Below, one piece after another: positions 2,513 to 32,863 of a stretch of DNA of 64,000 nucleotides (the first letter of the stretch is position 1; every line of letters starts with the position of its first letter). The stretch lies in assembly GCF_051903065.1 (NCBI RefSeq), contig NZ_CP178438.1; one strand, written 5' to 3'. The position numbers were made by a program, and so were the translations under genes. Below the pieces are notes generated by a model, which was not told the DNA's origin, searched no databases, and worked only from the letters and a program-made list of their open reading frames with translations. Source of the DNA: Escherichia coli. Lineage in GTDB: Bacteria > Pseudomonadota > Gammaproteobacteria > Enterobacterales > Enterobacteriaceae.

Positions 2513-3971
2513 ACTTCACGGAATATTTCGCCACGGTCGCTTTCGCACCATGCGCTAATAAAAACAAGTACGCTTCCGTCACTTTTGCAGTAAACAAGCT
2601 ATTGTCTGGCAAATCATCACCAAAGATCGCCTTAATCGCCAGCAATGACTGGACGCGCGCTTTCCCTTCGGCACTACTTTGTACAGCCTTCTGAATAACA
2701 GGTAACAGTGGGTCACTGATTTCAATCGGATTTCCCTGTTCATCAACACCACCGACATAACGCATCCAACCCGCGACGCCCAGCGCCAGCAGATCGAACT
2801 TGCTGTCATGCGCCAGATGCCAGCGAACAGAATCCAACATCCGCTGTGGCAATTTCTGGCTGCCATCCATCGCAATCTGCCAGGTTCGATGGCGTAACGC
2901 CGGGTTGCTATAGCGTGCAATTAATCGGTTAGCGTAATCTTGCAAATCAACGCCCTGCACTTTCAGCGTCGGCGCTTGTTCCTGCAACATCAAGCCATAC
3001 GCCGCATGACGATAATGTTCATCTTCCATACAGTCATTAATGTGCTGATATCCGGCAAGATAACCCAGATACGCCAGGAATGAATGACTGCCGTTGAGCA
3101 TGCGCAACTTCATCTCTTCATAAGGCAGTACATCGCTAACCAGTTCTGCTCCCGCTTTTTCCCATTCCGGACGTCCGGCAACAAAATTATCTTCGATTAC
3201 CCACTGGCGGAAAGGTTCACAGGCAACGCCAGCAGGATCGCGCACACCGGTAAGTTGTTCGATTTTCGCCAGCGTATCCTCTGTCACTGCGGGCACAATA
3301 CGGTCCACCATTGTTGATGGGAAAGTCACGTTATCTTCGATCCATTGTGCCAGTTTTACATCAACGGCTTGCGCGTAGGAAGTGACAACGTCACGCATAA
3401 CATGACCGTTTTCTGGCATGTTGTCACATGACATGACGGTAAATGCGGGAAGTCCTGCCGCTTTACGGCGAGCCAGCGCCTCAACAATCACCCCTGTTGC
3501 TGTTTTCGGCTGGTGGGGATTTTGCACGTCGGCAACGACCATCGGGTGATCGAGCATTAACTGTCCGGTCGCCGGAGAGTGGAAATACCCTTTTTCGGTG
3601 ATTGTCAGAGAGACAATCGCGATTTGTGGTTCACACATCGCAGCCAACACGGTTTCTAAGCCATCTATCTGTACGTGCAAGGCTTTTTTAACGACGCCAA
3701 CGACGCGAGCCGTCCACGCATCGGCCGACATTTCCGCAACGGTATAAAGATTATCTTGCTGTTGTAAATCGGCAATTTGCTGTTCGCCACCGATTAAGTT
3801 GACCTCATAATATCCCCAGTCACTGAAATGTTCTGTAGCAAGAATATCGGCATACACGCCCTGATGCGCACGGTGAAATGCACCAAAGCCTAAATGAACA
3901 ATTCTTGGGGCCAGGTTATTACGATCATAAACAGGGAGTGTCGCTTTTGCTGATAACAAATTATTTCCCAT
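2511..3971 (-). CDS. ydfI: mannitol dehydrogenase-family oxidoreductase (mannonate/altronate oxidoreductase-like)
   Basis: 486-aa ORF; family assignment from overall similarity to UxuB-type proteins by memory. Confidence 0.85.
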
Positions 3972-4059: not shown

Positions 4060-5343
4060 TTAAAGACTTCTGGAAGGTTGCGCAGCTCTTACAACACGCG
4101 GTTGATCTTCCGCAGCGTCTTCCAGCGCACTTAAATCACGGTCTTTCACTTCTGGCATTTTCAGCGCAGAGATTAAACCAATCACTGAATATGCCATGAT
4201 CATAATGGCGATTGGATACCAGGATTCCGTCATGGTGCAGAAAATACCCGCCAGGATAGGACCAAAACCGGAAGCGATAAGACCACCAATTTCTTTAGAA
4301 ATAGCCATCCGGGTAAAGCGGTTTTTACAGCCGAACATTTCTGCCATGGTAATGTTTTCCAGAGCAAATAATCCCAGCACCGCACAGTTATGAATCACAA
4401 TCAGTGCAACCATAATGGTGCTCGGGGCATAGCTTTTATCTACGATGATAGAAAGCATTGGCCATGCCAGCACAATCGCGGAGGTATTCATAATAATATA
4501 CGGGATCCGGCGACCAATTTTATCGGATAACCAACCAAGGAACGGAATGGTCATAAAGCCGAGAATCGAACTAATCATCAATGCATCTGTTGGAATTGCT
4601 TTGTTAAACAATAACGTCTGCACTAAATAGCCTGCAAGGAAAGTCTGAATTAACCCGGAGTTACCCGCCTGACCAAAACGCAGCCCTGTTGCCAGCCAGA
4701 AGGATTTGCTCTGGAACATGCTACCAGCAGGTGCAGGTTTTGCTGTCGGTTGGTTGCTGTCGTTAACCTTCTCAAAGACCGGGCTTTCTTTCAGATTCAT
4801 ACGCAACCAGATAGCAAAGACCATCACGACAACGCTCGCCAGGAACGGTATACGCCATCCCCACGCCAGCAGTTCCTCTTTACTGAGAATGAAGAACATA
4901 AAGGCCCAGATTGCCGTTGCGCTTAAGGTTCCGCAGTTAGTTCCCATAGCCACAAATGAGGAGATAATTCCGCGCTTACCTTTTGGCGCATATTCCGCCA
5001 GCATCGTACCGGCACCGGAAATTTCCGCACCTGCACCCAACCCCTGAATAATACGCAGCGTCACCAGCAAGATGGGTGCAAAAACACCAATCTGTGCATA
5101 GGTCGGTAACACACCAATTAAGGTGGTACAGATCCCCATCATGGTGATGGTAATAAAGAGCACTTTTTTACGCCCTATTCTGTCGCCCATTTTGCCGAAA
5201 ATAAATGCTCCGACAATACGCGCCACATAACCTGCACCGTAGGTTCCCATTGCCAGAATTAACGCCATTGCCGTTGATGATTCAGGAAAAAATATTTCAT
5301 GAAACACTAACGCTGCGCCGAGTGAATATAACTGGAAATCCAT
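4060..5343 (-). pseudogene. ydfJ: MFS transporter YdfJ (ProP-like), 3' portion; first ~28 codons displaced to 34966-35058 by prophage insertion
   Basis: 427-aa ORF starts MDFQLYSLGAALVF...; upstream N-terminal codons are found at the other prophage end; att core overlaps the ATG. Confidence 0.8.
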
Positions 5344-5345: not shown

Positions 5346-5946
5346 TTCACAGGTGTTTTTTCCCATCCTGTGGTTTCCTTGGCGTTTTCTAGGTTTTTTC
5401 AGATAGTTGCATTTTTTAAAAAGCATCCTAAGTTCGATCTCAGTGTCTATCTGGGGCCTATTTCTGTCCCATATATGCCCCAAAAAAACTCCCCAACAGA
5501 TAAGTAGTTTTTTCATGGATTTATGCGTAAAATCAAGAACGGCTGGAAATCATTCAATACTCACACTATCGAAAAATTTACCAGCCAACCGCAGCACGTT
5601 CTTGCATAAGGCGTGTCTGCGTTTTTTCAACTATTCAGATACATCACTCCCATCACAGTCATTCCTCCGCATCAAAGGCATATAGGCTATATCACCTTGA
5701 TATTTTTCTTTTTCAGATAAAAACTGTTATCTATGTATACTTTTAAACCCAATCCGTGTAGAGTCTCTGCATAAGATAGTTTGCAGTTGCCGCTTCAGCT
5801 TGCGCCATAAACCGCCTGATTTTTGCTGCCACCTGCTAGCATTCCTGTATACCTGAAACGACAATGTTTATCTACGAACTTTAAAAACACCCAAGATAAA
5901 AATTGTCAACTATATCATATATAACACATTACTAATTCGAGGCTAT

Positions 5947-6060
5947 ATGAACAGCATACTGATAATCACTTCTCTCCTTATCATATTCAGCATTTTTAGT
6001 CATGCCCTAATAAAATTAGGGATTGGCATATCCAATAACCCAGACAAAACCGATGTATAA
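5947..6060 (+). CDS. possible small hydrophobic protein (37 aa, one predicted TM helix)
   Basis: ATG preceded by GAGG; [37 protein letters not shown]; no homology check possible. Confidence 0.3.
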
Positions 6061-6095
6061 GTCAACATATCCTGAATCAGACATACAATATCGCA

Positions 6096-6362
6096 ATGAA
6101 AATCAATAATATTTTAAGGAATATCTTCATGAAATCAAAAGACACCCTAAAGTGGTTCCCTGCGCAGCTTCCTGAAGTAAGAATTATCCTAGGGGATGCT
6201 GTAGTGGAAGTAGCAAAACAGGGAAGACCTATTAATACCAGAACATTGCTTGATTACATTGAAGGAAACATAAAGAAAAAATCATGGCTGGATAACAAAG
6301 AATTATTACAAACAGCGATATCAGTTCTTAAAGACAACCAAAATTTAAATGGTAAAATGTAA
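6096..6362 (+). CDS. ydfK: prophage cold-shock-induced protein YdfK (YnaE paralog); true start may be internal Met at 6129
   Basis: 88-aa ORF containing MKSKDTLKWFPAQLPEVRIILGDAVVEVAKQGRP... Confidence 0.8.
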   Translation: MKINNILRNIFMKSKDTLKWFPAQLPEVRIILGDAVVEVAKQGRPINTRTLLDYIEGNIKKKSWLDNKELLQTAISVLKDNQNLNGKM

Positions 6363-6679
6363 TATAATAAACTTACTTTTTTATCATTTTTCCACTTTAA
6401 CAACATTTTTCTCCACTTTTCCACGTCCAAACAACTTGAAATCTGGTTAAAATAACACGCAACACTATTCTTCTTCCTTGAGTCCGCCCGGAACTCGAAA
6501 AACAAACCGAGTTAAAGCCATTTTTCACAAAATCGATTTTGGGTCTCACCAAAAATTACGGGGTTGCATACGCATTCGTTTATTTTCGAACGTGTACATA
6601 CAAATATGCACAAAAATAATCATAATTATTTTCTGAGATGCATTATGATATGAACACCAATTTCGAATAGAGTCTCACT

Positions 6680-7270
6680 ATGTCTCGAATTTTTGCTTAC
6701 TGTCGGATATCAACGCTGGATCAGACCACCGAAAATCAACGCCGGGAAATCGAAAGTGCAGGTTTTAAAATCAAACCTCAGCAAATAATCGAAGAACACA
6801 TTAGCGGCTCAGCAGCAACCAGTGAGCGTCCTGGTTTTAACCGGTTGCTTGCTCGCCTGAAATGTGGTGATCAATTGATTGTGACAAAACTGGATCGCCT
6901 TGGTTGTAATGCAATGGATATCAGGAAAACAGTGGAACAACTGACCGAAACAGGTATCAGAGTGCATTGCTTAGCATTGGGTGGCATTGACCTGACCAGT
7001 CCAACAGGAAAAATGATGATGCAAGTAATTTCAGCAGTCGCTGAATTTGAACGAGACCTTTTACTTGAACGCACTCATTCCGGGATAGTAAGAGCCCGCG
7101 GCGCAGGGAAACGTTTTGGTCGACCACCTGTGTTAAATGAAGAACAGAAACAGGTGGTATTCGAACGAATTAAGTCAGGTGTAAGTATAAGTGCCATTGC
7201 CCGGGAATTCAAAACCTCGCGGCAAACCATTTTAAGAGCCAAAGCAAAACTTCAGACACCTGACATATAA
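6680..7270 (+). CDS. pinQ: serine-recombinase DNA invertase Pin
   Basis: 196-aa [23 protein letters not shown]... (resolvase/invertase N-terminal catalytic Ser motif) with C-terminal HTH. Confidence 0.9.
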
Positions 7271-7367: not shown

Positions 7368-7943
7368 CTACGGCAGTGCTGGCCATTCAATATCCTGTGC
7401 AGTTGACGTATCAACACGGTTCAGCAATACCCGATACTTTTTCCATGCTTCCAGCAACGAGATTTCTTCCTCCGTTGCAATTTCCAGATCTGCAGCATCC
7501 TGAAGCGGCGCAATATGCTCACTGGCTACCTGCATCAGGTTGTTTTTTGTTTCTTCCGCCTCCCGGATCCGGAACAGTTTTTCTGCTTCCGTATCCTTCA
7601 CCCAGGCTGTGCCGTTCCACTTCTGAAACTCCCCTTCCGGCGATAACCAGGTAACATTTTCCGGTAACGGACCGAGTTCAGAAATAAATAACGCGTCGCC
7701 GGAAGCCACGTCATAGACGGTTTTTCCCCGATGATCTTCAACGAGATGCCACGATGCCTCATCACTGTTGAAAACAGCCACGAAGCCTGCCGGAATATCT
7801 GGCGGTGCAATATCGGTACTGTTTGCTGGCAGACCTGTATGAGGCGGAATATATGCGTCACCTTCACCAATAAATTCATTAGTTCCGGCCAGCAGATTAT
7901 AAATTTTTATGGTCTGTGGTTGTTCACTCATTCTGAATGCCAT
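7368..7943 (-). CDS. tfaQ: tail fibre assembly protein
   Basis: 191-aa ORF immediately downstream of tail fibre gene; Tfa-family organisation. Confidence 0.85.
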
Positions 7944-16809: not shown

Positions 16810-17080
16810 GATGTTACCGTAGTATGTGAGTATCCATCGAATAGACACCAAGCAAAAAAGCTCCCGAAGGAGCCTTCATTTTCACTTTTTTAAATCCAAC
16901 GACAGACGGCTGGCATTTAAGTATTGTGAAATATTATCAAATGTAATCATCATTGATTTACAAAAGATACATTTTGCCCCGAAAGGATTCATGTCAGAAA
17001 CATCAAAAGATGATGTTCTATACTGGGAACCATGACAACACGGGCATCTAAAGTGAATATGGTTTGTAATATTGTCTACC

Positions 17081-17293
17081 TCAAAGCGCCACTACATGAA
17101 CAGCGGCAGGACCTTTAGGTCCGTTCTCAATACCAAATTCAACTTCCTGATTCTCAGTTAATGTTTTGAAATCGTTGCTCTGAATTGCTGAGAAATGGAC
17201 AAACACATCTTTGCTGCCATCTTTCGGCGTGATGAAACCAAAACCTTTTTCAGGGTTAAACCATTTCACTAAACCAGTCATTTTGTTAGACAT
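17081..17293 (-). CDS. cspI: cold shock protein CspI (CspA family)
   Basis: 70-aa [26 protein letters not shown]... cold-shock domain RNP motifs. Confidence 0.9.
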
Positions 17294-17655
17294 AATTATT
17301 ACCTTTTGAAGAAATTAGCCCTTGGGCAGAATGGTCCGAAAAAAAATATCAGAGAGAAAAACCAACAAGGAAATCTCAAGAGGTACAAATAATAAAATTA
17401 TAACAATGACTGCTTCAGATAAATTTGTAACAAACCAGAACACCATTAACGCATGATTAACCACCCATAGCAAGGATTACTTTTGTAAAGAAAAACACAG
17501 CAATGAAAGAATAGCTTTATTTATTAATAAAACGTGTCATTCTGATTAAGACCTTTTATCTTACCCTTAAGATTTCAGGAATTTTGGCTCATGGAAGAGT
17601 CCTTTTTATTTAAATTTTACATTCCGCGATGTAAATGTTCCGATTTAATATTACC

Positions 17656-19600: not shown

Positions 19601-19963
19601 TTGATTTTATTAGTAACAAGTATTTTTTATATTTTAATAATATATTTAAAGCAGATAATAAAAAACCCGCCTGAGCGGGTTTGAGATTGTGGTGCTTTTT
19701 GTGGGAGTCATCCACTTACGCACTTTGTTTTGCGATGCCAGCAGTTAGCTTCTGCTGTGAAACTATTCATGCAGCAAACCTGCACTTCACCACAATGGTT
19801 AGCATACTTTTCCTGATTAAGATTTTGCCAAATATGCTGGCCATTGTTTCATGTATTGGACCTCCTTACTTTTTATTAAAGAGATCCAATATTCACTACT
19901 CTGTCCGTATCTCTACTCAGGCATCAGCCTTCTTCGTTATCGTATACAGACGAGCGATGAATT

Positions 19964-20179
19964 TTAATCAGTAATGATGACATTTACTGCTGCAGGACCT
20001 TTAGCACCACTCTCTATAGAGAAGGTAACCTTTTGACCTTCAAATAAGGTTCGATAATTATCATTCTGAATCGCAGAAAAATGCACAAACACATCTTTAC
20101 TACCATCAACAGGAGAAATAAAGCCGAAACCTTTATCAGCGTTAAACCATTTTACTAAACCAGTCATTTTATTTGACAT
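19964..20179 (-). CDS. cspB: cold shock protein CspB
   Basis: 71-aa [26 protein letters not shown]... Confidence 0.9.
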
Positions 20180-20489
20180 TCTACATTCCTTAACTTGAGC
20201 CTTTCGGCATAAATGGTTTGCATAACAGAAACGACTTCGTACTTAATTGGAGAGACTCAAAGAAGGAATAAGTGAATAACACCTGAAATGAGAACTGCTT
20301 TAGTAAACTACTTCGTATATCGTCTGTTCTTCAAACCGACGCAGTCATTAACTCATAGTTGAACATATGAAGCAATGTTTATTTTAGACATCCAGCCACC
20401 TTCAATCCTATCAAAAAAGTAGTTTTCTCCAGGAACGTGTGTATGGTGCACCAGGTTATCAGTATTAAGGAGTTTTTCTGTCCCCTAAA

Positions 20490-27110: not shown

Positions 27111-27444
27111 GAAAAATCCCCCAGAGAATTGTCTGGGGACATTTTAGAATGGTTCAAAGGGGACATTACAGCTTGGTGTTAACAATAGCCTGCTTCTCCG
27201 TGCCTTTCGGCACGTAAGAGGCTAACCTACATGTGTCTAGCATGAAATTGGCCTCAGATTAATGTTAAGCGTCTTGCAGGACGCGTAATGTTAACTGGGG
27301 CTTTTCTCTATCTGCCGTTGGTGTCCATGCCCGAGGCAGATAGCCTCAAGCACCCGCAGTCATTCTACTTAACTAAGATTTCCCCGCAAACCGTTTTTGT
27401 CCAGCACAGTAAATATCCAACTAAACCAATGGAGTTCGCTGTAT

Positions 27445-32805: not shown

Positions 32806-32863
32806 TTTCTGGTGACGTTTGGCGGTATCAGTTTTACTCCGTGACTGCTCTGCCGCCCTTTTT
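32806..32863 (+). ncRNA. dicF: DicF small regulatory RNA (ftsZ-targeting)
   Basis: TTTCTGGTGACGTTTGGCGGTATCAGTTTTACTCCGTGACTGCTCTGCCGCCCTTTTT matches remembered DicF with intrinsic terminator; ends approximate. Confidence 0.8.

Follow-up and report, generated by a model that had tools for sequence, protein, structure and literature searches.

Besides AcrZ, the characterised small single-pass membrane proteins of Escherichia coli include MgtS, MgrB and CydX, and ynfT, the gene described here, is one of many that encode verified small proteins of this species without an assigned function. In the survey of VanOrsdel et al. (2018), 80 short ORFs were SPA-tagged on the chromosome, and 36 of the products were detected by immunoblot (PMC6001520). 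The exact 37-aa sequence is tabled twice in that survey, as ynaM between ynaE and ttcC and as a second gene between ydfJ and ydfK (MG1655 1632890-1633003). Both copies belong to a group of 13 small proteins for which a tetracycline ribosome-profiling screen gave a signal as well (PMC6001520), and ribosome profiling was a check suggested in the original prediction of this ORF, which was made from the DNA letters alone. In addition, Weaver et al. (bioRxiv 10.1101/511675) measured more YnaM-SPA than of most other newly found small proteins, and neither retapamulin nor Onc112 gave a start-codon ribosome peak for YnaM. We suspect that the missing peak is an artefact of discarded multi-mapping reads, as ynfT and ynaM of K-12 have the same sequence around the start codon. 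A functional study of YnaM or YnfT was not found in our literature search.

The neighbouring genes have been described more often. YdfK and YnaE are cold-associated, their genes being cold-induced (PMC5594050), and ydfK/ynaE are among the most induced genes in long-term stationary phase (PMC7406224). Passages of two further reports describe short, Hfq-binding leader transcripts of ydfK/ynaE, which are called 'prematurely terminated' and proposed to be riboswitch-like (PMC5089854, PMC4152368). The leader RNAs were described in 2011-2014, before the discovery of ynfT and ynaM, and they fit a promoter located upstream of ynfT. The leader RNAs of ydfK/ynaE are probably the ynfT/ynaM mRNA.

The window analysed here is a stretch of 64,000 nucleotides from an E. 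coli contig (NZ_CP178438.1, assembly GCF_051903065.1). It spans the Qin prophage, as indicated by the Rfam elements of Qin that it contains: cspA-type thermoregulator 5' UTRs at 17054-17439 (-) and 19917-20340 (-), a hok/sok-type sok antitoxin RNA at 27184-27355 (-), and DicF at 32807-32858 (+). A full-length Rfam IS009 match (RF02111; 220.9 bits against a gathering threshold of 117) was also seen at 7402-7600 (-), inside or antisense to the tfaQ region and beside pinQ.

Positions 5947-6060 of the plus strand are the known Qin prophage gene ynfT, annotated in RefSeq and published in 2018. The frame opens with an ATG at 5947, runs through 37 sense codons and closes with a TAA at 6058-6060, as read from the sequence and the ORF list, and this is the 37-aa ORF that had been predicted. 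In two RefSeq records, including a K-12 MG1655 assembly, the "YnaM/YnfT family protein" WP_120795384.1 has its CDS at positions 3248-3361 of the extracted locus, which correspond to 5947-6060 of the window. The protein matched Pfam PF23676 'YnaM-like' over residues 1-37 of 37 (96.2 bits, cutoff 27), NCBIfam NF041477 'YnaM/YnfT family' (63.9 bits, cutoff 35), and PHROG phrog_35882, which has no assigned function (E=3e-20). In a megablast search, the segment 5700-6400 was present in 2,808 of 5,426 complete E. coli genomes, and the annotations beneath the match read 'ydfK: cold shock protein YdfK' together with 'ynfT' or 'ynaM'. Membership in the YnaM/YnfT family is shown by the full-length scores above the model cutoffs, by the agreement of coordinates, frame and product, and by the synteny upstream of ydfK/ynaE. 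With a RefSeq annotation, Pfam and NCBIfam families and a 2018 publication, the ORF is not a new discovery. Overall, ynfT is very probably a genuine coding gene for a single-pass membrane protein that is carried as prophage cargo together with ydfK. The features of the locus are collected in Table 1.

The name of the gene differs between sources. The 2024 y-ome paper puts ynfT first in a cluster of uncharacterised Qin genes that begins at 1632890 (PMC11551758), and this coordinate identifies the 'ynfQ' of VanOrsdel et al. (PMC6001520) as the gene that RefSeq and the y-ome paper call ynfT. In both of the latter, ynfQ denotes another Qin gene (PMC11551758).

Table 1. Features of the ynfT-ydfK locus, in coordinates of the window
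Feature	Positions	Strand	Basis
ydfJ pseudogene, a host gene that lacks its N-terminus and lies at the prophage junction	4060-5343	-	RefSeq 'incomplete; missing N-terminus'
Non-coding region upstream of ynfT, common to lambdoid prophage copies	5503-5946	+	Start of homology
ynfT-ydfK cassette common to Salmonella phage 118970_sal3	5894-6366	+	blastn, query 195-667 of window 5700-6700, 78.7% identity
Shine-Dalgarno core GAGG, then 4-nt spacer CTAT and ATG	5939-5942	+	Read directly; conserved
ynfT CDS, 37 aa + stop, YnaM/YnfT family	5947-6060	+	RefSeq WP_120795384.1; family models; dN/dS; PMC6001520
Predicted single transmembrane helix, codons 4-28	5956-6030	+	Hydropathy prediction
End of helix and polar C-terminal tail, codons 25-36, invariant	6019-6054	+	0 amino-acid and 5 synonymous changes vs Salmonella phage
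ynfT-ydfK spacer, 68 nt, 28% GC, including the ydfK Shine-Dalgarno sequence AAGGAA	6061-6128	+	Fold and identity tests
ydfK, 77 aa, cold-shock-induced, predicted YmgB/AriR-like fold	6129-6362	+	RefSeq; AF2 model

The original prediction had described a GAGG before the start codon, a hydrophobic N-terminal helix, an AT-rich setting and a position just upstream of a cold-shock gene, and each of these was recovered. The GAGG and its 4-nt spacing are kept in the Qin, Rac, prfC-site prophage, phage 2H10 and Salmonella phage copies. The Kyte-Doolittle maximum over 19 residues is 2.52, at residues 4-22, which is of transmembrane grade, and all 19-residue windows from 1-19 through 11-29 exceed a hydropathy of 1.8; the helix is thus a predicted one. 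The G+C content is 34% for the ORF, 38% for the upstream spacer and 28% for the ynfT-ydfK spacer, compared with 48% for the whole window, and ydfK, for which cold induction is published (PMC5594050), begins 68 nt past the ynfT stop. An ATG-initiated ORF of at least 37 aa with a Shine-Dalgarno sequence arose in only 3% of shuffles of the 785-nt spacer.

The coding constraint on ynfT was assessed by comparing the copies in K-12 Qin and Rac, a prophage beside prfC (two strains), the lambdoid phage 2H10 and Salmonella phage 118970_sal3. The frame and the 37-codon length are identical in five independent copies. Conservation upstream of the ydfK/ynaE paralogs had been proposed as a check of the ORF, with loss of the frame there counting against it, and the frame and length are the same in all of the copies. 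The differences within the ORF are synonymous only between the window and Rac (two) and between K-12 Qin and Rac (three), and in the prfC-site and 2H10 copies a single replacement, S18G, accompanies five synonymous changes.

Against the Salmonella phage copy there are 22 nucleotide differences in 111 nt, 14 of which fall at third codon positions (P=0.0035). The Nei-Gojobori dN/dS for ynfT against this copy is 0.09, computed from 14 synonymous and 8 non-synonymous changes, compared with 0.07 (0.074) for ydfK; given how narrow the YnaM/YnfT family is, the ynfT value depends in essence on a single diverged copy. The other five frames of the ORF contain stops and give ratios of 0.28-4.4. When 22 substitutions were placed at random, an open frame with at most eight amino-acid changes was retained in 0.08% of the trials (P=0.0008). 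In addition, the ORF shares 80% identity with the Salmonella copy, more than the 53 nt before it (55%) or the stretch between it and ydfK (62.5%). Between E. coli and the Salmonella phage, constraint on the peptide is strongest at residues 25-36. These comparisons show purifying selection on the peptide, and such conservation, more than the low frequency in shuffles, is the decisive sign that ynfT is coding; it is consistent with the published detection of the tagged protein.

In E. coli P276M (positions 2501-2906 of the extracted locus), ynfT carries a frameshift annotation, as does ydfK. The indels appear in or beside short homopolymer runs, which suggests an assembly error and not real decay.

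The ynfT ORF was found in 2,803 of the 5,426 complete E. coli genomes, with one to three copies in each. An exhaustive HMMER search of 1.84 billion representative proteins returned four clusters only, all of them trivial variants of YnfT. In tblastn searches of phages and plasmids the alignments were confined to residues 23-37, the low-complexity filter masking the hydrophobic N-terminus, and DNA searches and a local unfiltered tblastn were used in their place. The YnaM/YnfT family is narrow and confined to E. coli and Salmonella prophages.

The same arrangement of ynfT with ydfK/ynaE occurs in Rac, the prfC-site prophage, phage 2H10 and the Salmonella phage, and the cassette is present at three or more chromosomal insertion sites as well as in isolated phages. 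On one side of it lie the tail-fibre genes (stf and tfa, sometimes together with the pin invertase), and on the other the integrase/att end. Other morons at this genome position, such as HK97 gp15, are known for superinfection exclusion. The limits of the block shared with the Salmonella phage were reproduced by local blastn; the similarity falls to 38% upstream of 5894, and the block comprises ynfT and ydfK alone. Homology to the prfC-site prophage and phage 2H10 starts further upstream, at 5503, and that to Rac at 5585. In the window, ynfT is the first gene inside the prophage, beside the truncated ydfJ, and, judging by the position of ydfJ at the junction, it lies no more than about 450-600 bp from the prophage end.

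Some phage records lack an annotation of the gene. In the RefSeq record of phage 2H10 (NC_049950.1), the ORF is intact at positions 3248-3361 of the extracted locus and is unannotated, and the records of the lambdoid phages Tritos, mEp460, PhiR63_1 and PhiR68_2 have no feature beneath the match, which amounts to a small annotation gap.

For YdfK, a scan of genome contigs yielded two E. coli loci only, indicating a narrow distribution, and the YdfK family as a whole extends to Enterobacter, a second E. coli lineage, Salmonella and Limnobaculum, where identity falls as low as 55-64%. A YnfT-like ORF was not found at the 55-64%-identity YdfK/YnaE loci of Enterobacter, E. coli and Limnobaculum. 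This comparison of loci indicates that ynfT is a lineage-specific companion of the prophage-end ydfK clade and would not generally be required for ydfK expression.

The distant YdfK loci have conserved neighbours of their own. A divergent small protein of the YnfU family is encoded immediately upstream in the second E. coli lineage and Limnobaculum, and a gene for a 2,860-aa GH94-type glycosyl hydrolase lies downstream in Enterobacter and E. coli, the place of which is taken by a BON-domain gene in Limnobaculum. A GnsAB-family gene is found nearby in Enterobacter. YnfU and GnsB are themselves Qin-prophage gene families.

The YdfK AlphaFold model, built from 17 homologs, is all-helical (pLDDT 77.6), and its single outstanding match in the PDB is E. 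coli YmgB/AriR (2OXL; TM 0.68/0.83, rmsd 1.7 Å over 59 columns, Foldseek probability 1.00, E-value 0.26). A profile search of YdfK against PDB sequences gave nothing meaningful, and a profile search yielded no Pfam family, the protein being tagged PF27475 'YnaE' in the protein database. YdfK also gave a weak match to the YcgZ family model (E=0.012), which was seen for five of the 17 homologs. The modelled fold match to YmgB/AriR agrees with this weak sequence match, and the two together offer a lead that would place YdfK in the YcgZ/YmgA/AriR class of small regulators. The regulators of this class are cold-induced as well.

No terminator-like site was found in 5947-6128, which, together with the reported leader transcripts, supports a shared transcript; ynfT and ydfK are probably co-transcribed. 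A promoter upstream of ynfT was not located, since promoter-like matches were no commoner there than in shuffles, and the region 5503-5946 probably holds the promoter and leader of ynfT. The published guess for the ydfK promoter, 'TTCCCA-16-GATAAT', falls within ydfJ', at 4941-4968 and some 1 kb upstream, and the ynaE motif is absent from the window.

In the same region, a sub-threshold match to CssrB, a Shigella chromosomal sRNA, was seen at 5590-5727 (-) with 23.8 bits against a gathering threshold of 76 (E=0.023), and is probably due to chance. Just past the ynfT stop, at 6064-6078 (+), the block ACATATCCTGAAT is nearly unchanged in the Salmonella phage, whereas the remaining spacer diverges. 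Judged by its conservation, ACATATCCTGAAT could be a processing or binding site.

Several other readings of the ORF were weighed against a functional membrane peptide. The gene might act in cis as a uORF or leader peptide, its translation controlling ydfK through coupling, protection from Rho or RNase E, or attenuation in the cold. Such a role is favoured by the closeness of ydfK, which shares the strand and is not separated from ynfT by a terminator, by the constant linkage of the two genes within the close clade and by the Hfq-binding short transcripts, proposed to be riboswitch-like, that passages of PMC5089854 and PMC4152368 describe; in one MFE fold, moreover, codons 10-12 of ynfT pair with the ydfK Shine-Dalgarno region. 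However, the folds are no stabler than those of shuffled sequences (z of +0.84 for the spacer, and of -0.52 and -0.83 for further ynfT-ydfK 5' regions), the stretch that pairs with the Shine-Dalgarno region is altered in the Salmonella copy without any compensatory change, and the ORF has no run of regulatory codons. An attenuator or leader structure was rejected given the lack of both a terminator in 5947-6128 and a stable fold. A cspA-type thermoregulator or cold box was rejected likewise: RF01766 had no match in 5350-6700 at E<=1, its only hits being the two distant 5' UTRs at 17054-17439 and 19917-20340, and no cold-box motif occurs near the ynfT locus. Moreover, a 37-codon peptide is still almost wholly in the ribosome tunnel at termination, so that SecM/MifM-style force-sensing arrest is geometrically unlikely. 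The strong purifying selection on the whole peptide (dN/dS 0.09, invariant tail), the accumulation of the tagged protein (PMC6001520; bioRxiv 10.1101/511675) and the ydfK homologs of 55-64% identity that lack such an ORF also argue against control of ydfK by ynfT translation, which we regard as decidedly improbable; a secondary coupling role beside a functional peptide is possible, if rather unlikely. Known leader uORFs, such as that of the cspA type (RF01766) and YrbN upstream of deaD, resemble ynfT in being short ORFs in the AT-rich leader of a cold-induced gene, and other small proteins adjoin cold-shock genes, e.g. YnfR and yrbN (VanOrsdel et al., PMC6001520). They differ in that ynfT has neither a match to RF01766 nor a signal of alternative structures, and in that the peptide sequence itself is under selection. 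The original prediction had offered a small membrane protein or a leader peptide, and the former fits the annotated ynfT, the YnaM/YnfT family and the SPA immunoblot, whereas the latter finds no structural support.

That the small, hydrophobic and prophage-borne peptide is a membrane-damaging type I toxin, restrained by an antisense or trans RNA and stabilising the prophage, is highly improbable. Its match to the PepG1 model (E=0.055) scores 13.1 bits against the NF041589 cutoff of 70 and reflects hydrophobic composition only. On the minus strand, hexamers resembling a sigma-70 promoter at 6138-6111 might in principle drive an antisense RNA across the ORF, but promoter-like sites are not enriched over shuffles, this pair is not above chance, and its conservation is uninformative because it overlaps the ydfK Shine-Dalgarno sequence and start. 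The true hok/sok system of the window (Rfam sok at 27184-27355) likewise has no counterpart here, as no Rfam antitoxin or other RNA family overlaps or adjoins the ORF in 5350-6700, even at E<=1, above the thresholds relevant to a toxin or thermoregulator. There is no evident structured leader that would block translation and no PADLOC match, and the candidate was dismissed, composition and the 13-bit PepG1 match being all that favoured it. In addition, the tagged protein is fairly abundant in normally growing cells (bioRxiv 10.1101/511675), and the polar tail, not the hydrophobic core, is most conserved. Thus YnfT shares with Hok, Ldr, Ibs and PepG1 the form of a small hydrophobic peptide on a mobile element, and differs from them in being tolerated at detectable levels and in having its conservation centred on the polar tail. 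The ORF could finally be a chance frame in a non-coding regulatory leader RNA of ydfK. AT-rich DNA, with few GC-rich codons, readily yields hydrophobic frames rich in Ile, Leu and Phe, and the pre-2018 literature, in the passages of PMC5089854 and PMC4152368 that concern this region, took it as a non-coding 5' leader. This reading is effectively refuted already by the codon-position bias, the dN/dS of 0.09, the permutation P of 0.0008, the better conservation of the ORF than of its flanks, the conserved Shine-Dalgarno spacing, the lack of significant RNA structure and the published detection of the protein.

A functional membrane peptide thus remains the preferred reading of ynfT. YnfT would consist of one N-terminal transmembrane helix (residues ~4-28 of 37) and the short conserved polar tail SNNPDKTD, and it would probably be inserted in the inner membrane with its N-terminus out and its C-terminus in, because its only lysines, K23 and K34, sit on the C-terminal side. 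By riding on the ydfK leader transcript, ynfT would share the expression of ydfK in the cold and in stationary phase. The peptide itself, above all its invariant tail, would be the functional entity, and, by analogy with characterised small membrane proteins, YnfT most likely binds a membrane or membrane-proximal partner. The two genes travel as a two-gene cargo cassette of lambdoid phages and of one Salmonella temperate phage.

A more specific proposal, which we consider unlikely as it stands, makes YnfT and YdfK a working pair. The cytoplasmic SNNPDKTD tail would recruit or gate the AriR/YmgB-like YdfK at the inner membrane, by which the prophage would tune envelope signalling of the host, e.g. 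Rcs, the pathway targeted by the cold-induced connectors YcgZ/YmgA/AriR, in the cold or in stationary phase. In addition, the leader RNAs would be the ynfT/ynaM mRNA, possibly with a dual function.

About half of the complete E. coli genomes carry ynfT, purifying selection on it is strong, and temperate phages keep it in tight linkage with the gene of a cold-induced AriR-like protein, so that ynfT is a reasonable candidate for functional study, in work on prophage cargo as well as on small membrane proteins.

Among the known systems, AcrZ, the reference protein in Weaver et al. (bioRxiv 10.1101/511675), is like YnfT in having fewer than 50 residues, one predicted transmembrane helix and a short polar tail, and YnfT was found by the same tagging approach as small single-pass membrane proteins of the AcrZ type. 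Those proteins have identified partners, namely pumps, transporters, kinases and oxidases, whereas none is reported for YnfT. YnfT also differs from them in being prophage-borne and very narrowly distributed, so that the likeness is one of class and not of homology. The closest counterpart is YnaM, encoded in Rac between ynaE and ttcC: the protein is identical (the same WP_120795384.1), it has the same Shine-Dalgarno sequence, and its gene is likewise followed, after 68 nt, by a ydfK/ynaE gene at the end of a prophage. YnaM and YnfT differ only in prophage and site, YnaM being located in Rac next to ttcC/uspF, and YnfT in Qin within ydfJ.
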